A stretch of DNA of 64,000 nucleotides, from the NCBI GenBank assembly GCA_035402765.1, contig DAONDX010000005.1, positions 7,304 through 71,303 of the forward strand. The letters are read 5' to 3'. Made by a program: the position numbers and the translations under genes. This document shows positions 2,834 to 11,644 of the stretch, in pieces; positions within the stretch are counted from its first letter, which is position 1, and each line of letters starts with the position of its first letter. Below the pieces are notes generated by a model. That model made no database searches, had not been told where the DNA came from, and saw only the letters and a list, made by a program, of their open reading frames with translations. The stretch comes from Candidatus Omnitrophota bacterium. GTDB taxonomy: Bacteria > Omnitrophota > Gorgyraeia > Gygaellales > Profunditerraquicolaceae.

Positions 2834-5071
2834 ATGAAAAGAATTCTATTGTTTATCCTGCCCATATTAATCTTAGTTGCGCTTGGATTTGCTATTTCGG
2901 GCGTTATGCAAGCTCGTTTCACAGAAGATAAGCTTATGGATGATTTAAAAAGAAAAGCCAGGTCTGTGGATGAAGGCTTGGAATTATCAGCTAAGTATAT
3001 TCTTATTAACAATGATTTAAAGCAAGCCAACCGTTTAGTTGATAGCTTCCAGAAAAGAGAAAGGCTGCAAGGTTGTGTTATTTACGATAAAGATGGCCAG
3101 ATATTAGCGATTACTGAAAGATTCTCTGATTTTAAACAGAAAGAAAGGCCATATTTGAAAGATATCCTATCTTCTAAATCGCCGCGAGGAGCGCTGGAAA
3201 AGTTTAAAGAATACTCTGTATATAGCTACATTTTACCTGTCTTAAATGATGATGAGAGTGTATTAGGAATGGTAGAGGTAGTTTATGACACATCGTATAT
3301 GTTTACTACTTTAACTGAATTATGGAGAAAAATAAGCGTTACCTCCATTGCGCTTATCTTACTAATAGTTTTAACTGCCTTATTAATTCAGAGACAAATT
3401 TTTATTGTTCCGGTACGTAGGCTAACGCAGTGGTTTACGCATTTTCAAAGAGGAGAAACTGATAAATTGCGGCCGTTTGCTGAAAAAGGTGAATTTGGTA
3501 AGTTGATTAGTGAGGTAGAGCAGGTTGCCTTAAGCATTAGAGTAGCGCGTCGTACCATATCAGATGAAGCGCATGTGCGCTTGCAAAAAGAAGATCTTTG
3601 GACTGAAGCCAAGCTTAAAGATCTAATCCACGCAAAATTAGGAGAGAATTCTTTATTCGTGGTTTCTAATCGAGAGCCGTATATGCATGTTTTCGATGAG
3701 AATTTGGGTAAGGAGACATGCATAAGGCCGGCAAGTGGCGTGGTCACTGCGATACATCCAATACTTTCAGCTTGCGGTGGGACCTGGATTGCGCATGGCA
3801 GTGGTAATTCTGATAAAAAATTCGTTAACTCTAAAGATAAACTCGGCGTGCCTCCTGAGGATAACCGGTATATTCTTAAGAGAGTTTGGCTTAATAAGGA
3901 AGAAGAACAAGGTTATTATTATGGTTTTTCCAACGAAGGGTTATGGCCCTTATGCCATAATACACATACGCGGCCGGTTTTTAAAGAATCTGACTGGCGT
4001 ATGTATAAAGAAGTAAATCAGAAATTCGCAGACAGTATTTTAAATGAACTACCGGTAAGCAGCCCGTTTATATTTATCCAAGATTATCACTTTACTCTTT
4101 TGCCAAAGATGATCAAAGATAAACGGCCGGATGCAAAAGTAGCTTTATTCTGGCACATACCTTGGCCTACCCCTGAAGCTTTTATGATTTGTCCTTATCA
4201 GAATGAAATTTTAGAGGGCATGTTAGGATGTGATTTGATCGGTTTTCATGTTCAGAACCATTGCAACAATTTTTTGGATACCGCCAACCGTTTGCTTGAG
4301 TCACGCGTAGATACTGAAAAATTCAGTGTTGTGCGTTCGGGTAAGGAAACTTTTATCAGGGCTTTTCCTATCAGTATTGACTCGCATATTGGCGATGGTT
4401 CATTTAGAGTCGATCCTGTCAGACAGGTAGAGAAACTTAAGAAGGAGTTTGAGCTGAATGATGAAACTATTGTCGTGGGGGTGGATAGAATCGATTATAC
4501 TAAAGGCATAGTCGAGAAGATTTTAGCCGTCGATAGATTTTTAGATAAGTATCCTGAATATAAAAAGAAATTTGTTTTTATACAACTAGCCGCACCAAGC
4601 CGAACACATATTAAGCGTTATCATGATTTAATCGGGGAAATCGATGAATTAGTTGAAAAAATTAACTGGAAACATATAGATGGAAACTGGAAGCCAATAA
4701 TCTATCTAAAAAAGCATTTTTCTCAAGATGATATCCAGCCTTATTATAGGCTTGGTGATATTTGTATTGTTAGTTCGCTGCATGATGGCATGAATTTGGT
4801 GGCTAAAGAGTATGTTGCAGAGAAGGATGACTTATCCGGGGTGTTAATCTTAAGTCAATTCACCGGGGCAGCGCGAGAGCTTACCGATGCTATTTTGGTT
4901 AATCCATATTCAATTGAAGAGTTTGCGGATAGTATAAAATTGGCCATTCAGATGCCCAGGGAAGAGAAGGTGAGGCGTATGGTAAATATGCGTAAGGTGA
5001 TAGTGGAAAATAATATTTACCGCTGGGCAGCTAACATTATCAATGAGATGGTTGCATTAAAACAAATTTAA
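2834..5071 (+). CDS. otsA: membrane sensor (2 TM + periplasmic domain + HAMP) fused to trehalose-6-phosphate synthase (GT20)
   Basis: N-terminal ~260 aa: TM1 (ILLFILPILILVALGFAI), a periplasmic region, TM2 (ISVTSIALILLIVLTALLI), and a HAMP-like amphipathic segment (IVPVRRLTQWF...GEFGKLISEVEQVALSI). The C-terminal part aligns to OtsA motifs: LFVVSNREPY, GGTW, EGLWPLCH, VNQKFAD, IQDYHFTLLP, FWHIPWP, CDLIGFHVQ, VDRIDYTKGI, DGMNLVAKEYVA...LSQFTGAA...ILVNPY. Confidence 0.8.
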   Translation: MKRILLFILPILILVALGFAISGVMQARFTEDKLMDDLKRKARSVDEGLELSAKYILINNDLKQANRLVDSFQKRERLQGCVIYDKDGQILAITERFSDFKQKERPYLKDILSSKSPRGALEKFKEYSVYSYILPVLNDDESVLGMVEVVYDTSYMFTTLTELWRKISVTSIALILLIVLTALLIQRQIFIVPVRRLTQWFTHFQRGETDKLRPFAEKGEFGKLISEVEQVALSIRVARRTISDEAHVRLQKEDLWTEAKLKDLIHAKLGENSLFVVSNREPYMHVFDENLGKETCIRPASGVVTAIHPILSACGGTWIAHGSGNSDKKFVNSKDKLGVPPEDNRYILKRVWLNKEEEQGYYYGFSNEGLWPLCHNTHTRPVFKESDWRMYKEVNQKFADSILNELPVSSPFIFIQDYHFTLLPKMIKDKRPDAKVALFWHIPWPTPEAFMICPYQNEILEGMLGCDLIGFHVQNHCNNFLDTANRLLESRVDTEKFSVVRSGKETFIRAFPISIDSHIGDGSFRVDPVRQVEKLKKEFELNDETIVVGVDRIDYTKGIVEKILAVDRFLDKYPEYKKKFVFIQLAAPSRTHIKRYHDLIGEIDELVEKINWKHIDGNWKPIIYLKKHFSQDDIQPYYRLGDICIVSSLHDGMNLVAKEYVAEKDDLSGVLILSQFTGAARELTDAILVNPYSIEEFADSIKLAIQMPREEKVRRMVNMRKVIVENNIYRWAANIINEMVALKQI

Positions 5072-5085
5072 TTTATGAGGTGCAA

Positions 5086-6141
5086 ATGAATAAAGAGTTT
5101 TATGTAAAATTTAGTAGTTTAGCCGAAATGTTTATGCCTTTGATTATTTTCTTAATAGTTTTGCTTGTCGGGTTTATTATTAAAAAAATAATTCTCAGTC
5201 GACTTCTGCGCTGGGCAAAAAAAACATCTACCCAATTGGACGATATTATAGTGCAAGCTGCTAAAAGTCCACTTACGGTTATTTGCTTGATGTTGGCTTT
5301 ATATTTTGCGTTGCAATTTTCAAAACTCCCAGAAAATATTGTTCAGGTGATGAGTAAGAGTACTCTTATTCTAGGTATAATTGCTGCGGTATTAGCATTA
5401 GCGAATCTATTATCTGGGGTAATCAAGCTTTATGCTTCTCGAATTGATTCTGCTTTACCGGTTACTAGCCTCACTCAGAATATCGCCAGGGTTTTTGTTT
5501 TCTCAATCGGCGCGTTGATAATTCTTAACAGCTTAGGAATATCCATCACACCTATATTAGCTACTTTAGGAGTGGGTGGTTTAGCTGTAGCTTTGGCCCT
5601 CCAAGATACCCTAACTAATCTTTTCGCCGGATTCCATATTACTGTGGCTAAGCAAATCAGGGTCGGTGATTATATTAAATTGGAGTCAGGAGAAGAAGGT
5701 TATGTCGTGGATATTAACTGGCGATCAACAAAGATTAAAATGCTGTCCAATAACCTGGTGCTTATTCCAAATGATAAATTAAATAAAGCGATTGTTATCA
5801 ATTATTATTTACCGGATAAGGAAATGGCGGTTTTAGTTGATTTGGGGGTGCATTATAAAAGCGACTTGGGAAAAGTTGAGAAGGTTACCTGTGAAGTAGT
5901 AAGGTCTGTTATGAAAGAAGTAAACGGGGGAGTTGATTATTTTGAGCCATTTATCCGTTATCACACTTTTAGTGATTCTTGCATAAAATTTACAGTTATA
6001 TTAAGAGTTAAGGAATTTGCTGATCAGTATTTGATTAAACATGAGTTTATTAAGCGGCTGCATAAACGGTATACACAAGAAGGTATAAATATTCCTTATC
6101 CGATCATGACGATAAACTACGAGCAAGAGAAATCTGGATAA
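5086..6141 (+). CDS. mechanosensitive ion channel, MscS family
   Basis: TM helices followed by the conserved pore/beta-domain region GVGGLAVALALQDTLTNLFAGFHITVAKQIRVGDYIKL...GYVVDINWRSTKIKMLSNNLVLIPND. ATG 5086 is preferred over in-frame GTG 5080 because of the TGAGG RBS. Confidence 0.8.
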   Translation: MNKEFYVKFSSLAEMFMPLIIFLIVLLVGFIIKKIILSRLLRWAKKTSTQLDDIIVQAAKSPLTVICLMLALYFALQFSKLPENIVQVMSKSTLILGIIAAVLALANLLSGVIKLYASRIDSALPVTSLTQNIARVFVFSIGALIILNSLGISITPILATLGVGGLAVALALQDTLTNLFAGFHITVAKQIRVGDYIKLESGEEGYVVDINWRSTKIKMLSNNLVLIPNDKLNKAIVINYYLPDKEMAVLVDLGVHYKSDLGKVEKVTCEVVRSVMKEVNGGVDYFEPFIRYHTFSDSCIKFTVILRVKEFADQYLIKHEFIKRLHKRYTQEGINIPYPIMTINYEQEKSG

Positions 6142-6147
6142 TATAAA

Positions 6148-6948
6148 ATGCGTTATATTTTTAATGATTTAGATAAAATAAAAAGAAAATTGGTAGGTAA
6201 ATATATTTTTTTGTTCCTTGATTGCGATGGTACTTTGACGCCGATTGTTGATACGCCGGACAAAGCGATAATTCCCCCAGATACAAAAAAAATACTTAAT
6301 TTGTTGTCGCAGAAGAATAATTGTAGGATAGCCATTATTAGCGGTAGGGCCTTGGTTGATATTAAGAAAAAAGTTGGGCTTAAAAATATTATTTATTCAG
6401 GTAATCATGGTTTTCAAATCGAGGGGCCCAAGATTAATCATGAAATAGCAGTCCCCCTGGATTATAAAAAAATACTGGAGCGCATTAAGATTAAGCTCGA
6501 AGAGAGGCTTTTTGGCATAAAAGGAGTTTTTGTAGAAGATAAAAAGATTTCTTTGGCCTTGCATTATAGGCTAGCTAATCGAAAGCAGGTGCCCTTTATT
6601 AAAACTGTTTTTCATGAGAGCATTATTTTGTATTTAGTAAGAAATAAAATTAAGATTAGACCCGGGAAGGAGATTCTAGAAGTAATGCCTCCGGTTCATT
6701 GGGACAAAGGAAAGATTGTTTTGTGGCTTTTAGCCCGGCAGGAGGCTTTATCTAAAAACGGTCGGAATATTCCTATTTATATTGGAGATGATGCTACTGA
6801 TGAAGATGCTTTTAAAGCGCTTAAAAACAGAGGGTTAACCGTATTTGTAGGGAATGCCAATTCTTCGCAGGCAAAATATTATGTCAGAAATGTTAAAGAG
6901 GTCTATGAGTTATTAAAATATATCCTGGATATCCAGAATATAAAATAA
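6148..6948 (+). CDS. otsB: trehalose-6-phosphate phosphatase (HAD-IIB)
   Basis: FLFLDCDGTLTP (HAD motif I), IYIGDDATDEDAF (motif IV), typical OtsB length. Confidence 0.8.
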   Translation: MRYIFNDLDKIKRKLVGKYIFLFLDCDGTLTPIVDTPDKAIIPPDTKKILNLLSQKNNCRIAIISGRALVDIKKKVGLKNIIYSGNHGFQIEGPKINHEIAVPLDYKKILERIKIKLEERLFGIKGVFVEDKKISLALHYRLANRKQVPFIKTVFHESIILYLVRNKIKIRPGKEILEVMPPVHWDKGKIVLWLLARQEALSKNGRNIPIYIGDDATDEDAFKALKNRGLTVFVGNANSSQAKYYVRNVKEVYELLKYILDIQNIK

Positions 6949-6950
6949 CT

Positions 6951-7622
6951 ATGGTAGAGATAATAAGAGCTAAAGAGCCATTTAAATTTTACACCAGATT
7001 ACATTTAACTGAATTAACCGGGTTAAGAGCCACTACTTTAAGTCAGCTTGGCAGCCTTATTAAAAAGGTATCCGGATCAAGTATCTATCACCACACTCAC
7101 AGATTTCTGCAGCAGCATCAGTATCTTTCTCCCGAGCCCCCGAATGATTTTGCTTACTGGGTAACTGAAGTCCTGGGTGAGGATGAGTTGGGAGAGAAAT
7201 TAGCCAGCATTGATACTATTCAATATTCTACCATTCGTAGTCTTAGGGATAAAATCGTTTCAACAATTGATGATTATCTTGCGCATAGCCCTTTTGCTAA
7301 ATTAAAGTTTGCTAAAAGCGGAGAGGAGTTCCACTTTATGAAATCAGTAAGTTTTATTCTTCCTTCCGGATATAGCGTGACTGATTTAAGGGAATTTGCG
7401 GATTCCTTGCGGAAAATAACCATTGATTCCATATATTTCCATATTTTTGAGGCACGTTTAAGGCTTGAACGCGAAGGGAATGATTTTTCCAATTGGATCG
7501 AGCATTCTTTAGGAGATGAGGAATTAGCAAGAGAAATCTCAAACCTTGATCCGTATACCCAGACATTAGAAAATCTCAGGCAGTCGATTTTAAGCATTGT
7601 TCAAAAGAGGACGGGTTCTTAA
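6951..7622 (+). CDS. hypothetical protein conserved within the trehalose operon
   Basis: 223-aa ORF tightly packed between otsB and treT. No motif recognised. Confidence 0.4.
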   Translation: MVEIIRAKEPFKFYTRLHLTELTGLRATTLSQLGSLIKKVSGSSIYHHTHRFLQQHQYLSPEPPNDFAYWVTEVLGEDELGEKLASIDTIQYSTIRSLRDKIVSTIDDYLAHSPFAKLKFAKSGEEFHFMKSVSFILPSGYSVTDLREFADSLRKITIDSIYFHIFEARLRLEREGNDFSNWIEHSLGDEELAREISNLDPYTQTLENLRQSILSIVQKRTGS

Positions 7623-7623
7623 T

Positions 7624-8835
7624 ATGGCATACATAAAAGAATATATCCCGATTGTCGGACAGTCTATTATTGATGATTTACAGCTTCTTGGCGATAAGCT
7701 AGCTGGTAAGACAATTCAGCATATTAATTCTACGGCTGTAGGTGGAGGGGTGGCGGAAATATTAAATCGTATGGTTCCTCTTTTAAAGGAGCTTGGAGTG
7801 GATACGCGATGGGATGTGATTAAAGGTGGTGAGCAATTTTATGAAGTAACGAAAAAGTTTCATAACGCTTTGCATGGCAGGCAGGAATCTATAAATATGC
7901 GTGATTTCAATATCTTTATGGAAACTAGCGCTAAAAATATCGAGGAAGTAAATACATCCCGTGATATTGTTTTTGTTCATGATCCACAACCGATTGCGTT
8001 AGTAAAAAAGAAATCCGGGAATAAATGGATTTGGCGCTGCCATATTGATGTGTCAGGTCCTAACCAGAAAGTCTGGAAATTTCTCAGGAGTTATATTGAT
8101 AAATACGATGCAGCGGTATTCTCTGCTCCTGATTTTTCACCGCGATTGCCGATCAGGCAGTTTTTGATTGCTCCTTCGATCGATCCTTTAAGTGATAAAA
8201 ATAAGGAGTTGCCCCAAGATATAATTGATGGGGTTTTACAAAAATATAAGTTAACTATGGATAAGCCTATGTTGACGCAGATTTCGCGTTTTGACCGTTT
8301 AAAGGACCCTCTGGGGGTTATTGAAGCTTATCAGCAGGTAAAACGATATATCGATTGTCAGCTAATTTTAGCAGGAGGTACGGCCAGCGATGATCCTGAA
8401 GGTCTGAAGGTGCTTGAGGAAGTTCAAGAAAAGGCAAGTAAGGATAAAGATATTCATATTTTATTATTGCCTCAAAATGATATCGAAGTTAATGCTTTGC
8501 AGCGAGCCGCAACCGTTATTATTCAGAAGTCGCTTAAAGAAGGATTTGGCCTAACAGTTTCTGAAGCGTTATGGAAAGCCAAACCAGTTATTGCTTCCAA
8601 TGTTGGAGGGATTCCTCTGCAGATTAAGCATAAATACTCCGGATTGCTTTGTAGTTCGATTGATGGAGCAGCGTTTTCTATAAAACAGCTTTTTAATAGC
8701 CCAGAGTACGCTAAGAAATTGGGCCAGAACGGTAGAGAACACGTTAAAAATAATTTTTTACTAACCAGGCATTTACGTGAATATATGCTTTTGTTTCTTT
8801 CATTATATCATCCTGAAGATATCGTTTATCTTTAG
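7624..8835 (+). CDS. treT: trehalose glycosyltransferring synthase, TreT-like (GT4)
   Basis: Motifs shared with archaeal TreT: INSTAVGGGVAEIL, VFVHDPQP, WRCHIDVS, PSIDPLS, SRFDRLKDP, KEGFGLTVSEALWKAKPVI. ATG 7624 directly follows the upstream stop. The in-frame extension back to 7597 overlaps the previous gene. Confidence 0.75.
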   Translation: MAYIKEYIPIVGQSIIDDLQLLGDKLAGKTIQHINSTAVGGGVAEILNRMVPLLKELGVDTRWDVIKGGEQFYEVTKKFHNALHGRQESINMRDFNIFMETSAKNIEEVNTSRDIVFVHDPQPIALVKKKSGNKWIWRCHIDVSGPNQKVWKFLRSYIDKYDAAVFSAPDFSPRLPIRQFLIAPSIDPLSDKNKELPQDIIDGVLQKYKLTMDKPMLTQISRFDRLKDPLGVIEAYQQVKRYIDCQLILAGGTASDDPEGLKVLEEVQEKASKDKDIHILLLPQNDIEVNALQRAATVIIQKSLKEGFGLTVSEALWKAKPVIASNVGGIPLQIKHKYSGLLCSSIDGAAFSIKQLFNSPEYAKKLGQNGREHVKNNFLLTRHLREYMLLFLSLYHPEDIVYL

Positions 8836-8855
8836 TTAATTTGGTATACAAGGGT

Positions 8856-8945
8856 TCGGAAGTTTTTTCTTCCGGAGGATCTAGATGGTCGGGCCGCCAT
8901 CTTGCATGTTAGTGCAGGATGGCGTTTTTGTTTTATAAGGATAAA
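8856..8945 (+). promoter_or_regulatory. conserved leader/attenuator element, copy 2
   Basis: Hairpin CGGAAG...CTTCCGG. GGAGGA RBS. Mini-ORF 8885-8938 encodes MVGPPSCMLVQDGVFVL, with its first 18 nt identical to copy 1 (ATGGTCGGGCCGCCATCT). Hairpin CCATCTTGCA/TGCAGGATGG is followed by GTTTTTGTTTT. Confidence 0.55.
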
Positions 8946-8988
8946 TTTTAACCATAGATTGCAAGTTTTTTTAGAGAGAGGAAGAGTT

Positions 8989-9087
8989 ATGGACAAAGGA
9001 ATGAAGGTTATATTTATTATAATGGGAGTTTGTATTCTAACCGGGGTATTGTGTGTGATTTTTGCGTTTACTCATAACATTAGATAA
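8989..9087 (+). CDS. small single-TM peptide (32 aa)
   Basis: RBS GAGAGAGGAAGAG. MDKGMKVIFIIMGVCILTGVLCVIFAFTHNIR. Confidence 0.35.
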   Translation: MDKGMKVIFIIMGVCILTGVLCVIFAFTHNIR

Positions 9088-9244
9088 GGGGGTGCAGATT
9101 GAGGTTAAGTGGCTGGATATTTATGATAATTTCATGGACATGTATCTTGAGCATGTTAGTTTTTTGTTATAGCAAGATATTCAAAAAGGGACTTGGTGGT
9201 GATGATTCTAAAGTATTAAAACGGCTTAAGAAATAGGAGGTTTT

Positions 9245-9358
9245 ATGCGGGGTAATATATTACAAAATATAGGAGTAATTTTACTGGCAATTATAGTTTC
9301 GGCAGTTATCTATTTTATAAATAATAGAAAGACGATAAATAAAAGCAAAATTAAGTAA
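9245..9358 (+). CDS. small single-TM peptide (37 aa)
   Basis: Strong RBS AGGAGG 4 nt upstream. MRGNILQNIGVILLAIIVSAVIYFINNRKTINKSKIK. Confidence 0.4.
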   Translation: MRGNILQNIGVILLAIIVSAVIYFINNRKTINKSKIK

Positions 9359-9383
9359 GGCATAGATAGGATGGGAAGTCAAA

Positions 9384-9482
9384 ATGACTATAAACTTGGC
9401 TAGGGATTGGTCAACATTTCTTATTTGGGGCTTGGCAGTATTGAGTTTTATTGTTTTGGTTATCCTATATCATAAAAGTTAA
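9384..9482 (+). CDS. small single-TM peptide (32 aa), DW-motif paralog
   Basis: MTINLARDWSTFLIWGLAVLSFIVLVILYHKS. Shares the (R/Q)DW + TM pattern with the peptides at 10283 and 10421. Confidence 0.4.
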   Translation: MTINLARDWSTFLIWGLAVLSFIVLVILYHKS

Positions 9483-9522
9483 GAATAGAAAAAATTGATT
9501 AAATAATATGAAAGAGTAAAGA

Positions 9523-10131
9523 ATGAACCTAGGGCAGTTTTTAGCTATTTTTATCTCGGCAGTTTTTGTTAACAATGTTATCCTGTCACGTTTTTTAGGG
9601 TTGTGCCCCTTTGTCGCTATATCTAAAGACACAAGGCAGGCGTTTGTCATGAGTATGGCCGTTACGTTTGTGACTACAATATCGTCTGCCATAACCTGGC
9701 TGGTTTATAAATTTCTTTTGGTTCAATTTAACTTAACATATTTACGTACTTTAGTTTTTGTTTTAATCATTGCTGCTTTTGTGCAATTGGTGGAAATGAT
9801 AATAAGAAAAACGAGCCCCGCCCTTTATCGCGCCTTCGGTATTTATCTTGTTTTAATTACAACAAATTGCGCAGTTTTAGGCGTAGCGGTTTTAAATATT
9901 GATATGTTTTTTGTAGACAATAAAGCAATAACTGGAAGCTTTGCATTCTCAATATTCCAGGGGTTATGTGTAGGAATTGGCTATACTTTAGCTATGCTTT
10001 TGATGTCAGGTATTAGGGAGCGGCTTGAACTTTGTACTTCACCCAAAGCATTGCAAGGTTTGCCTTTAGCTTTTATTGTTGCTTCTATAATGAGTCTTGC
10101 TTTTATGGGGTTTGGCGGATTCAAATTCTGA
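9523..10131 (+). CDS. RnfA/NqrE-family membrane subunit (orphan)
   Basis: VNNVILSRFLGLCPF, LTYLRTLVFVLIIAAFVQLVEMIIRKTSPALYRAFGIYLVLITTNCAVLGVAVLN and MSLAFMGFGG closely match RnfA/RsxA. No other rnf/nqr subunit is in the window. Confidence 0.8.
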   Translation: MNLGQFLAIFISAVFVNNVILSRFLGLCPFVAISKDTRQAFVMSMAVTFVTTISSAITWLVYKFLLVQFNLTYLRTLVFVLIIAAFVQLVEMIIRKTSPALYRAFGIYLVLITTNCAVLGVAVLNIDMFFVDNKAITGSFAFSIFQGLCVGIGYTLAMLLMSGIRERLELCTSPKALQGLPLAFIVASIMSLAFMGFGGFKF

Positions 10132-10176
10132 AATAAAGGTTTATTAAGTTAATAAGAGACAGAATTGTACGATATC

Positions 10177-10302
10177 ATGCGTTTATGGGCGCTTATTATT
10201 GCTGTCTTTATGTTATTTTTCTTTATAATTTTCTCGCAGAAGATTAAAGAAGAAAGTAAGTGTAATAAAGAAGATAAAAATTATGGAAAGAATAAAGCCT
10301 GA
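10177..10302 (+). CDS. small single-TM peptide (41 aa)
   Basis: MRLWALIIAVFMLFFFIIFSQKIKEESKCNKEDKNYGKNKA. Weak RBS. Confidence 0.25.
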   Translation: MRLWALIIAVFMLFFFIIFSQKIKEESKCNKEDKNYGKNKA

Positions 10303-10375
10303 AATGACCGGAGATTTATCTAGAGATTGGATTCTTTATGTGTTTTTAGCCGGAGTAACAGGCGTTATTATTTAA
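10283..10375 (+). CDS. small single-TM peptide (30 aa), DW-motif paralog
   Basis: MERIKPEMTGDLSRDWILYVFLAGVTGVII. Overlaps the previous small ORF in a different frame. Confidence 0.3.
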   Translation: MERIKPEMTGDLSRDWILYVFLAGVTGVII

Positions 10376-10420
10376 TTATTCTAGTGAAAAAAACGAAAGT
10401 TAAAAAGGAGGGATTCTCAA

Positions 10421-10564
10421 ATGGCAGGTAATTTAGTGCAGGATTGGCCCGTGTATGTACTGGGAGGATTAGTAATATTTTTCTTTGCTTATATGATTAT
10501 CAAAAGTAACTTTGGTGAAAAAGACAAAAATACAACTCAACCGTCAGATAAGGTTAATAAATAG
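10421..10564 (+). CDS. small single-TM peptide (47 aa), DW-motif paralog
   Basis: Strong RBS AAGGAGGG. MAGNLVQDWPVYVLGGLVIFFFAYMIIKSNFGEKDKNTTQPSDKVNK. Confidence 0.45.
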   Translation: MAGNLVQDWPVYVLGGLVIFFFAYMIIKSNFGEKDKNTTQPSDKVNK

Positions 10565-10566
10565 GA

Positions 10567-11188
10567 ATGGATAGAAGTATTATTCCGCTTTTTCTATTTG
10601 TTCTGGGCTATATTTTATTCGTGGCGTTTCCCGGAAGGATGTCTTTGGTTGTATAATTGCAGCCAGGTTACTTTCAATAACCCGACTGTTGTCCTTTCTT
10701 GGGGCCATGAATTTTGTAAATTGGAATGTCATGGGAATTTTCGTGGGCACATTAGCCGTAGCGGATGTTTTTATGGAAAGTAAGGTGCCTGTGGTTATTG
10801 CTGAGATTATTGTTGATAAAGCCCATAATACTGCTTGGGCAATTTTATTTTTGTGTGTTTTACAGTTTTTACCTCTGCGTTTGTGGACAATATTCCTTTC
10901 TTAGTAGCTATGTTATCTGTGGCCATTTAGATGGCTAGTAAACTTAATGTAAGCCCTTCATTGTTTCTTTTTGGGATACTTATTGGTGCAAGTTTAGGAG
11001 GCGATATTACACCGATCGGAGCTTTGGCTAATATTGTTACCTGTGGTTTACTTAAAAAAGAGGGATATATATTTAAGTTTAAAGATTTTATGAAAATTGG
11101 AATTCGTTTTACTTTTGCCGCTGTAGCTGCCGCGTATTTATTTGTTTGGTTCATTTGGAGGCCACGATTTTCTTATTGTCTGCCATAG
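10567..11188 (+). pseudogene. degraded ArsB/NhaD/CitMHS-type anion permease (frameshifts plus internal deletion)
   Basis: Three frames together encode an N-terminal part (IIPLFLFVLGYILFVAFPG; NFVNWNVMGIFVGTLAVADVF...AILFLCV; SAFVDNIPFLVAMLSVAI in a shifted frame) and a C-terminal part (GGDITPIGALANIVTCGLL...) of a ~420-aa permease. The middle ~220 aa are missing. Confidence 0.55.
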
Positions 11189-11363
11189 AGAAGCGGTCAA
11201 TTGGTTAACCTTTTAATTGTAAACAGTTACACGATTTAGAGCTAAAAATTACCGGATAAAACGGACTTCTGCTCCGCCTTCGGTTTCGCAGGATTTGACT
11301 AAATCAAAGCTTAATGTGCTCAAAATTTAGCGAGGAAATAGCCTCTCCAAATACAGAATATTC

Positions 11364-11392
11364 TTGATATGTCGGGGTATTACACCTGTAAT
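11364..11392 (+). promoter_or_regulatory. sigma-70-like promoter of the candidate sRNA
   Basis: TTGATA, 17 nt, TGTAAT. Confidence 0.35.
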
Positions 11393-11398
11393 TAAGCT

Positions 11399-11562
11399 AA
11401 TATATTTAGAGAGGTTTCCCCTTGGCCTATCCGAGTGGGACCCTTAAATTTCCCTCATTTGCGGATAAGAAATTTATCCCGGGTGAAGTGAGGGATAGCA
11501 TAAAACACAAGTAAGCCTAAAGGCTATTGATTGGAAACGATCAATAGCCTTTATATTTGTTT
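11399..11562 (+). ncRNA. candidate small RNA (promoter + nested hairpins + intrinsic terminator)
   Basis: Nested inverted repeats TCCCTCA...TGAGGGA enclose GGATAA-N5-TTATCC. The transcript ends in the strong terminator at 11521-11562. No ORF with an RBS is present. Confidence 0.3.
11521..11562 (+). terminator. rho-independent terminator
   Basis: AGGCTATTGAT / ATCAATAGCCT 11-bp stem with a 7-8-nt loop, then TTTATATTTGTTT. Confidence 0.6.
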
Positions 11563-11616: not shown

Positions 11617-11644
11617 TTGACAAAAAAATATTAAATGTTATACT
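11617..11644 (+). promoter_or_regulatory. consensus sigma-70 promoter upstream of amtB
   Basis: TTGACA, 16 nt, TATACT, with an A-rich UP-like tract upstream. Confidence 0.6.

Follow-up and report, generated by a model that had tools for sequence, protein, structure and literature searches.

RNAs of the nhaA-I class have been described as Li+-responsive activators of gene expression, and rare members of the class that bear a terminator respond to Na+ and have been named Na+-II; the latter have been reported from Deltaproteobacteria only, where the genes that follow them are of unknown function (White et al. 2022, PMC9646797). The genes associated with nhaA-I RNAs include otsA (16 cases), nhaD (6), 'citrate transporter' (5), glycosyltransferase (5) and mscS (3), with a further 171 labelled 'hypothetical' (PMC9646797). 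As for the Rnf complex, a dimer of RnfA and RnfE holding a [2Fe-2S] cluster is the proposed Na+ path in Acetobacterium woodii, where T110, T111 and N112 of RnfA contribute to a buried Na+ site and a T111G mutant does not grow at 2 mM NaCl (bioRxiv 10.1101/2024.06.21.599731). Here we analyzed a stretch of 64,000 nucleotides from a Candidatus Omnitrophota bacterium (assembly GCA_035402765.1, contig DAONDX010000005.1, positions 7,304 to 71,303 of the forward strand; hereafter the window), in which two nhaA-I RNAs, a trehalose/MscS operon, seven small open reading frames (ORFs) and a stand-alone rnfA gene lie in one locus. The reading that we favor, with a probability of roughly 0.6, is that positions 8852-11553 would form the distal gated part of a salt-stress locus, namely a Na+/Li+-induced membrane module comprising accessory micro-proteins and an alternative isoform of RnfA.

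Small accessory subunits are known from several Na+-coupled transporters and pumps, among them MetS of the NSS importer MetPS, FXYD of the Na,K-ATPase, KdpF and OadG. The peptides of the window resemble these subunits in that they are single-pass proteins of 30-50 residues whose genes adjoin or overlap a transporter gene; they differ from them in having no detectable sequence relation (Pfam, NCBIfam, PDB) and in having putative partners that vary by locus. Comparison with known small membrane regulators (KdpF, AcrZ, CydX, OadG and others) likewise revealed no similarity beyond chance-level matches.

An Rfam scan of the window returned two matches in all, both to RF03057 (nhaA-I, gathering score 37 bits). 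Aptamer no. 1 lies at 2720-2786 (39.9 bits), ahead of the trehalose/MscS operon, and aptamer no. 2 at 8852-8902 (49 bits, E 1.2e-6), starting 17 nt past the stop codon of the TreT gene; these and all other features of the window given here are on the + strand. The original prediction, which was made from the sequence without database searches, had taken the repeated element for a 'MVGPPS' leader. Two copies of it are indeed present, but each is nhaA-I riboswitch structure, and we therefore rejected a coding leader or attenuator peptide: the repeated 17-mer ATGGTCGGGCCGCCATC (2769-2785 and 8885-8901) is the P2 stem-loop of the aptamer. In a terminator scan, riboswitch 1 was found to be followed by a terminator-like hairpin (2782-2803) with a T-run after it and riboswitch 2 by an intrinsic terminator (8895-8934), consisting of a 13-bp stem (8895-8924) and then TTTTTGTTTT. 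The minimum-free-energy fold of 8848-8940 comprises P1 and the terminator (-37.2 kcal/mol, z -6.0). In both riboswitches the terminator takes its 5' arm from aptamer stem P2, of which this arm forms the 3' half; as far as the sequence can tell, an overlap of this kind is how a transcriptional ON switch is built, and because of this shared arm, we predict an expression platform of the ON type for both.

The related loci (designated by L-numbers) were gathered by exact-protein look-up and gave 12 further RF03057 matches above the gathering score, at 43.8-60.7 bits. An aptamer precedes the trehalose operon in L002, L004, L090, L094, L179 and L181 as well, and in L092 about 2 kb separate the match from the GT20 gene downstream. 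We aligned the two window copies with seven copies from related loci (nine Omnitrophota copies) and with the published template from Desulfobulbus propionicus. The conserved GGGU...GAGG and GGUCGGGCCGCC elements were invariant or nearly so across these nine copies and the D. propionicus construct, and P1 displayed compensatory pairs across the nine copies, as exemplified by CCGGAAG/CUUCCGG vs. UCUGGAG/CUCCAGA; in addition, the hairpin was found in 9/9 of the aligned Omnitrophota copies, with a clean T-run in 8/9. The likeness to nhaA-I and Na+-II thus covers the RF03057 match, the predicted ON logic, the terminator platform and a GGAGG junction as in D. propionicus. We surmise that the ligand is Na+ and/or Li+, because the Omnitrophota copies match Na+-II in terminator platform and GGAGG junction, yet carry a U at the specificity position, to which we return below.

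The riboswitch class and several of its cargo types (otsA, mscS and an nhaD-like permease) are already known, with otsA, mscS, nhaD or 'citrate transporter' and 'hypothetical' genes all on the published list. What sets the window apart is that its copies are from Omnitrophota, in contrast to the Deltaproteobacteria from which all reported terminator-bearing variants had come, that two copies stand in series within one locus, and that the micro-protein families and the RnfA paralog are new to the class as cargo. In the papers that we consulted, we found no description of terminator-type nhaA-I RNAs in Omnitrophota, of serial gates, of the micro-protein families or of an RnfA paralog as riboswitch cargo.

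The operon behind riboswitch 1 comprises genes for a GT20 trehalose-6-P synthase-like protein (2834-5071), an MscS channel (5080-6141) and a trehalose phosphatase (6148-6948), as assigned from the precomputed Pfam matches of the identical locus L001, and then, from Pfam matches, for a DUF5752 protein (6951-7622) and a TreT-type trehalose synthase (7597/7624-8835). L001, a JGI contig, is identical to the window locus, with 0 mismatches over 9092 nt. The synteny of the trehalose operon is conserved across all related loci. As a side observation, DUF5752 is constant between the phosphatase and TreT in this riboswitch-controlled operon, both in the window and in all related loci, and since it is a constant member, this suggests an unrecognised role of DUF5752 in trehalose metabolism or its regulation. 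A promoter scan revealed no promoter-like site between TreT and riboswitch 2. Because riboswitch 2 starts within 17 nt of the TreT stop and no such site intervenes, the peptide/RnfA cluster appears to be a second, serially gated segment of one salt-stress unit, and the gated unit probably ends at a strong terminator-like hairpin at 11518-11553. At either riboswitch position, peptide A is the first ORF after the riboswitch terminator (in the window, in L181 at 7904-7990, in L004 at 1845-1943 and in L179 at about 766-864).

The six ORFs of 30-48 residues reported by the original prediction are all found where it had placed them, but the count comes to seven (A-G, 30-47 residues), each with one hydrophobic stretch. 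Peptide A (8989-9087, 32 residues), peptide B (9099-9236, 45 residues, TTG start, with eight lysines or arginines in a basic tail) and peptide C (9245-9358, 37 residues, with a basic tail and an AGGAGG ribosome-binding site) each comprise a single transmembrane helix and are followed by peptide D (9384-9482, 32 residues), a short member of what we call the DW family. Beyond the rnfA gene are peptide E (10177-10302, or from a TTG at 10165; 41 or 45 residues, a single transmembrane helix with a KIKEE..KEDKN tail), peptide F (10283-10375, 30 residues), which overlaps the end of E and has the DW motif and no basic tail, and peptide G (10421-10564, 47 residues), a long member of the DW family (MxGNLxQDWPVYVL...) with a AAGGAGGG ribosome-binding site, immediately upstream of the permease gene. 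The (R/Q)DW motif is carried by D, F and G exactly as had been quoted, and in the DW family this conserved acidic/aromatic motif lies at the predicted outer membrane boundary. Basic C-terminal tails are found in B, C, E and G, and from these tails and the positive-inside rule an N-out/C-in orientation is predicted for at least B and C. F aligns from its internal methionine onwards to the N-terminus of G and is probably a truncated duplicate of G. Of separate note, an ORF in another frame (9062-9172) overlaps B, contains WLDIYDNFMDMYLEH and recurs in L002, L088, L091 and L094; we rejected this ORF ('WLDIYDNF...') as a gene, as it is non-hydrophobic and far less conserved than B, and is probably a by-product of the conservation of B.

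Could these ORFs be the remnants of transporters, or chance ORFs in T-rich DNA, with the RnfA as a dying duplicate? A decayed operon had been put forward as an equal alternative, with some reason, as the adjacent permease is a pseudogene, F is without a homologue elsewhere and resembles a truncated G, E has a stop codon in L097, some B peptides are labelled 'choline-glycine betaine transporter' by JGI, and B has a weak, sub-threshold BCCT match (E 0.035). In a chance test with + strand ORFs of at least 30 residues and a 19-residue hydropathy window of at least 2.0, six hydrophobic ORFs were observed vs. a mean of 0.055 and a maximum of 2 among 1000 dinucleotide-preserving shuffles, the observed count being reached in 0/1000; F, with a hydropathy of 1.56, falls under the threshold of this test.

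Homologues were found in other loci for every window peptide but F. As judged by sequence comparison, the seven peptides make up five families: A, B, C, DW (D, F and G, the paralog family that had been proposed, now with 190 clusters of homologues) and E. Homologues of A were identified in L004 (1845-1943), L179, L181 and L097 (87% identical), with a fragment in L002, and those of C in L002, L004, L088, L092, L094, L097, L179 and L181. D has a homologue in L097 (79% identical) and related 31-residue forms in L094 and L181, while G is present in L002, L088, L091, L092, L094, L097 and L181. E has a homologue in L092/L093 (59% identity); because the copy in L097 is interrupted by an in-frame stop, E would seem the least secure of the conserved families.

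Ratios of non-synonymous to synonymous differences (pN/pS), taken at synonymous sites at or near saturation, were 0.37 for A, 0.09-0.42 for B, 0.2-0.75 for C, 0.32-0.56 for G and 0.44 for E (vs. L092/L093), compared to 0.11-0.21 for TreT on the same genome pairs. Between lineages with saturated synonymous sites, the ORFs have been retained together with their start codons and ribosome-binding sites. Among called genes, B was represented by 65 clusters at 90% identity, and a profile of the B family matched 698 clusters at 50% identity, of which the best 150 representatives are all shorter than 80 residues, with neither a fragment nor a fusion to a larger protein among them; on this ground we rejected the idea that the peptides are pieces of a BCCT or other transporter. 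For the DW family, the 120 listed of the 190 clusters are 39-73 residues long and nearly all from Omnitrophota where the source names the organism. Pfam and NCBIfam gave no above-threshold match for the seven peptides or for ten B relatives, the sub-threshold ones being at chance level (ATP-synt_8 at 8e-4 for E, YldA at 0.2 for C), and PDB profile searches with B and DW gave no meaningful match. On the strength of conservation, pN/pS well below 1 and the chance test, the peptides are to be regarded as genuine genes, as had been proposed, that are conserved and under purifying selection. Together with a ratio of non-synonymous to synonymous substitution rates (dN/dS) of about 0.07 for the RnfA, in a low range like that of operon-borne copies (0.05), these data largely rule out decay or noise in the case of A, B, C, D, G and RnfA, and we consider it highly improbable as an account of the locus.

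The original prediction had pictured a peptide module built around an orphan RnfA. A machine of that kind, in which the peptides are dedicated subunits of a self-contained complex (e.g. an RnfA homodimer plus peptides) working independently of Rnf, would be in keeping with the position of the RnfA directly among the peptides, with tight spacing, in the window, L002, L004, L097 and L179, and with RnfA/RnfE being the Na+-conducting part of Rnf. The related loci bear on this directly. A, B, C, DW and E recur in L002, L004, L088, L091-L094, L097, L179 and L181 in shuffled order, always behind the riboswitch/trehalose operon. After TreT, the order is (A fragment)-B-C-RnfA-G-permease in L002; RnfA-B-DW-C in L004 and L179, where peptide A stands behind riboswitch 1 and heads the trehalose operon; A-B-GPH symporter-C-D-RnfA-E-G-permease in L097; A-B-C-D'-G-permease without RnfA in L094 and L181, with A identified in L181 only; B-C-E-G-Na/Ca exchanger in L092/L093; and Na/Pi cotransporter-B-(several peptides)-G-Na/Ca exchanger in L088/L089 and L091. 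Counting non-redundant loci that have the long form of B and a readable downstream region, RnfA is present in five (window, L002, L004, L097, L179) and absent from five (L088, L091, L092, L094, L181). Because five cassettes do without it and stand beside other cation transporters, the peptides are not specific to RnfA.

The peptides of L094 and L181, both without RnfA, are the closest relatives of those in the window among the loci compared. For B, C and G the nearest is L094, with synonymous differences (pS) of about 0.5 vs. about 0.85, i.e. saturation, for the adjacent TreT; because of this discrepancy, the cassette is, on the evidence of these distances, a mosaic. The window cassette corresponds to an A-B-C-D-G-permease core with RnfA-E-F inserted, and comparison of window 9099-10564 with L094 7061-7600 and L181 7904-8538 suggests recombination or exchange of cassettes and a recent gain or loss of RnfA-E-F. 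In addition to the RnfA-less cassettes, a self-contained machine has to contend with an RnfA that shares ~75% identity with the RnfAs of operons and scores above the cut-off of the rnfA model, for which retained Rnf partners would fit better, with canonical rnf operons that are very probably co-resident, and with the opposite topologies of RnfA and RnfE, which mean that a homodimer would need dual-topology insertion. We regard it as very unlikely.

What is constant about the cassettes is the riboswitch/trehalose operon, accompanied by changing genes for cation transporters. The neighbours include a Na/Pi cotransporter, a Na/Ca exchanger, a Na/H exchanger, a GPH symporter and an ArsB/NhaD-like permease, with starts and stops that overlap or nearly abut: B overlaps the stop codon of the Na/Pi cotransporter gene in L088 and ends 4 nt ahead of the GPH symporter gene in L097. 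A short form of B, 34 residues in length, directly follows SNF/NSS genes in 3/3 unrelated loci (L006 2184-2288, L013 254-358 and L182/L183, at 5001-5105 in L182), overlapping the SNF/NSS gene by 4 nt in L013 and L182/L183; the B of the window is without an NSS neighbour. In trailing an NSS/SNF gene at each of these loci, short-form B is like MetS, and the DW family is like FXYD in that a conserved aromatic/acidic motif marks the predicted outer end of its helix and a basic tail the cytoplasmic side. As an observation in its own right, short-form B has the look of an uncurated family of small subunits that serve NSS transporters; a MetS-like small-subunit family was absent among Pfam/NCBIfam matches at E up to 1 for window B and ten short-form relatives.

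The peptides might also act without specific transporter partners, as stress-induced membrane-active agents, be it as oligomers forming cation leaks or channels or as membrane-stabilising proteolipids of the Pmp3/YqaE type. The set does travel together whichever transporter is present, A invariably heads the genes behind the riboswitch, and the acidic/aromatic motif of the DW family lies at the predicted outer boundary of the membrane, all of which would suit such agents. Against this, the way in which B overlaps or abuts genes for NSS, Na/Pi and GPH Na+ symporters suggests translational coupling, and no similarity to a known channel-forming peptide or proteolipid was found in Pfam, NCBIfam or the PDB. 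We hold this alternative to be unlikely. That the peptides bind transporters, as part of the reading that we favor, is itself a tentative proposal with somewhat less than an even chance.

The RnfA of the window (9523-10131, 202 residues; here RnfA2) is full length and belongs to the 6-TM Rnf-Nqr fold family, where TM denotes transmembrane helix. It passes the NCBIfam model TIGR01943 for rnfA (237.1 bits, cut-off 229.3), matches Pfam Rnf-Nqr (PF02508) at E 3.6e-56 and 190.4 bits vs. a threshold of 23.8, and aligns end to end with the RnfA chains of A. woodii, Clostridium tetanomorphum and Azotobacter vinelandii in the PDB (E 1.8e-57 to 9eri_A). It is 100% identical to a protein from a Candidatus Omnitrophota metagenome-assembled genome (MAG), HPT39076.1. 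The statement that a full-length RnfA stands here without Rnf partners was borne out, as tblastn across the 64-kb window turned up no further rnf gene. In comparison with RnfA of known structure (TIGR01943; 9eri, 7zc6, 8ahx), RnfA2 keeps both cluster cysteines, the TTNC motif, K35 and the equivalents of Q88/Y108 implicated in A. woodii; it differs in being encoded alone behind a riboswitch among micro-proteins, very probably beside an operon copy. As a further observation, Omnitrophota RnfAs, orphan and operon-borne alike, have an 8-residue loop insertion vs. A. woodii 9eri_A, at residues ~129-137.

An orphan rnfA follows TreT in 5/5 orphan loci. Scans of genome and metagenome contigs with RnfA returned, among the matches listed, mostly distant operon-encoded RnfAs, L097 being the only useful new orphan locus. 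In other Omnitrophota rnfA is found inside an rnfC-G-D-E-A-B operon (L006-L019, L098, L099, L177, L180). In a neighbour-joining tree of 120 close homologues and the locus-derived sequences, the orphan RnfAs fall together in a single clade (about 30 sequences), whose sister is one group of RnfAs from operons, with dN/dS of 0.07-0.08 within the orphan clade compared to 0.05 for operon copies, at saturated synonymous divergence. All orphan-clade sequences examined have C28, C116 and T113-T114-N115 (the TTN motif), and these residues align to A. woodii 9eri_A, with T113, T114 and N115 of the window matching T110, T111 and N112.

With respect to the origin of RnfA2, one has to consider that it may be the genome's sole rnfA, relocated from an rnfCGDE-B operon to riboswitch control, which would render assembly of Rnf dependent on Na+ or Li+. 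No second rnfA has been seen for the window genome, and the branch leading to the orphan clade arises among operon RnfAs and is of ordinary length. We approached the question of paralogy through proximity of GenBank accession numbers. The orphan P0024 is MFA5008672.1, with peptide B as MFA5008673.1, and the operon-borne P0093 (L177/L178, complete) is MFA5008849.1, 177 numbers away; likewise, the orphan P0190 is MDD4182529.1 and the operon-borne P0086 (L180, complete) is MDD4182928.1, 399 numbers away. Because these gaps fall within sequential accession runs, an orphan RnfA and a complete rnfCGDEAB operon are very probably co-resident in two MAGs. In addition, rnfA lies between rnfE and rnfB in 20/20 Omnitrophota-type rnf loci, where the contig reaches that far, and the closely related cassettes L094 and L181 are simply without the gene. 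We thus judge relocation of a sole rnfA to be decidedly unlikely. The original prediction had itself named a complete rnf operon elsewhere, with this copy as a decaying duplicate, as one finding that would speak against it: such an operon is very probable in related genomes, but the extra copy is conserved. RnfA2 is probably a paralog, not a relic, and within the reading that we favor it is likely, with a good deal of assurance, that it is an extra paralog with a co-resident operon.

In the two co-resident pairs, the orphan and operon RnfAs are 73-74% identical, and RnfA2 departs from the co-resident copy (orphan/operon) at N17/Y, P29/S, Q39/P, T48/M, V or A110/P, T114/V and, at 179-180, GL/DF. 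P29 adjoins Cys28, and T114 lies inside the TTNC motif and adjoins Cys116; together with V110/P, the differences P29/S and T114/V border on the cluster ligands and on the Na+ site described for A. woodii Rnf (bioRxiv 10.1101/2024.06.21.599731). At positions 17/29/39/48/110/114 (window numbering), operon RnfAs are mainly of the types YSPMPV or YPQTTT, in contrast to NPQT(V/A)T in the orphan clade. The YSPMPV type is the one found in both co-resident operon copies. In the L181 genome, which lacks RnfA2, the canonical RnfA is of the YPQTTT type and thus already has P29 and T114, a single case.

The last gene of the cassette, a permease of the ArsB/NhaD/CitMHS family (10567-11188), is a pseudogene, as the original prediction had recognized. 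Using the L094 permease as a tblastn query, we recovered residues 1-27, 10-100 and 315-421 in three different frames, with ~214 residues deleted (about 101-314) and a frameshift; L001 has the same wreck. The permease is intact at 423 residues in the relatives L002, L094 and L181, and in L097 its first 211 residues run uninterrupted up to the contig end. Between the permease relic and the hairpin at 11518-11553, about 330 nt (11190-11520) gave no Rfam match, and beyond the hairpin a sigma-70-like promoter (11617-11644, promoter scan) precedes an ammonium-transporter gene. Apart from these features, we noted a group I intron match (RF00028, 58 bits) at 16717-16936 of L013, in an unrelated part of that Omnitrophota contig.

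According to the reading of an ion-induced membrane module, rising cytoplasmic Na+ or Li+ would open gate 1, leading to trehalose synthesis and expression of MscS, and gate 2 would open next, allowing transcription of the membrane module. At each gate, ion binding would stabilise P2 and thereby prevent termination, resulting in read-through; this prediction again follows from the terminator 5' arm being the P2 3' arm. The module behind gate 2 would comprise the five single-pass micro-protein families, RnfA2 and an NhaD/ArsB-type permease that is dead here. We postulate that micro-proteins A-G insert in the membrane as accessory or regulatory subunits of Na+-coupled carriers, and that RnfA2 may compete with RnfA1, the operon copy, for RnfE, replace it under ion stress and retune the handling of Na+ by Rnf. 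Stress-related switching of isoforms in respiratory and ion-pump complexes offers a parallel, since RnfA2 is a conserved second copy of a core subunit under separate, signal-specific control; the parallel is limited in that, here, subunit exchange would be our interpretation. We know of no documented case of isoform switching in Rnf.

Several observations weigh against this reading. All Omnitrophota copies read GGU-CGGGCC, with a U at the specificity position where validated Na+-II RNAs have a C (AGC-CGGGCC), and this renders the identity of the ligand uncertain despite the common terminator platform and GGAGG junction. The Omnitrophota specificity position resembles that of the published M4 mutant (C54U) of the D. 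propionicus Na+-II construct, which responds to Li+, Na+ and NH4+ (PMC9646797). Adjacency of the peptides to transporter genes is no proof of physical interaction. Co-residence of the two RnfAs relies on accession proximity in two MAGs and depends on correct binning, and accession proximity did not reveal a canonical rnf operon of the window genome's own, unlike in those two MAGs. Constraint on C, G and E is only moderate, the L097 copy of E is interrupted and F is unique to the window, and the permease pseudogene demonstrates that parts of the cassette do decay.

With regard to what the locus means, some of the 'hypothetical' genes associated with nhaA-I, which make up a large share of the associations, gain identities, and the terminator-type members of the class are extended beyond Deltaproteobacteria. 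At least four well-conserved, uncurated families of membrane proteins of 30-50 residues are defined, among which B, whose relatives number in the hundreds and which is consistently linked to Na+ symporter genes, provides a concrete entry point for small-protein biology. Genes of this kind are missed or mislabelled by gene callers and annotators, as exemplified by a riboswitch read as a peptide leader and by the 'choline-glycine betaine transporter' labels. A riboswitch-controlled RnfA paralog that differs beside the Fe-S ligands and the proposed Na+ site constitutes a natural experiment on the debated Na+ path of Rnf/Nqr. A bolder version of our proposal, which we consider doubtful, is that the micro-proteins are interchangeable regulatory subunits on Na+-coupled transporters and that the swap to RnfA2 converts Rnf into a Na+-extrusion pump of different affinity; if true, subunit swapping governed by a sensed ion would be seen in Rnf for the first time, and a new class of transporter-modulating small proteins would be defined.

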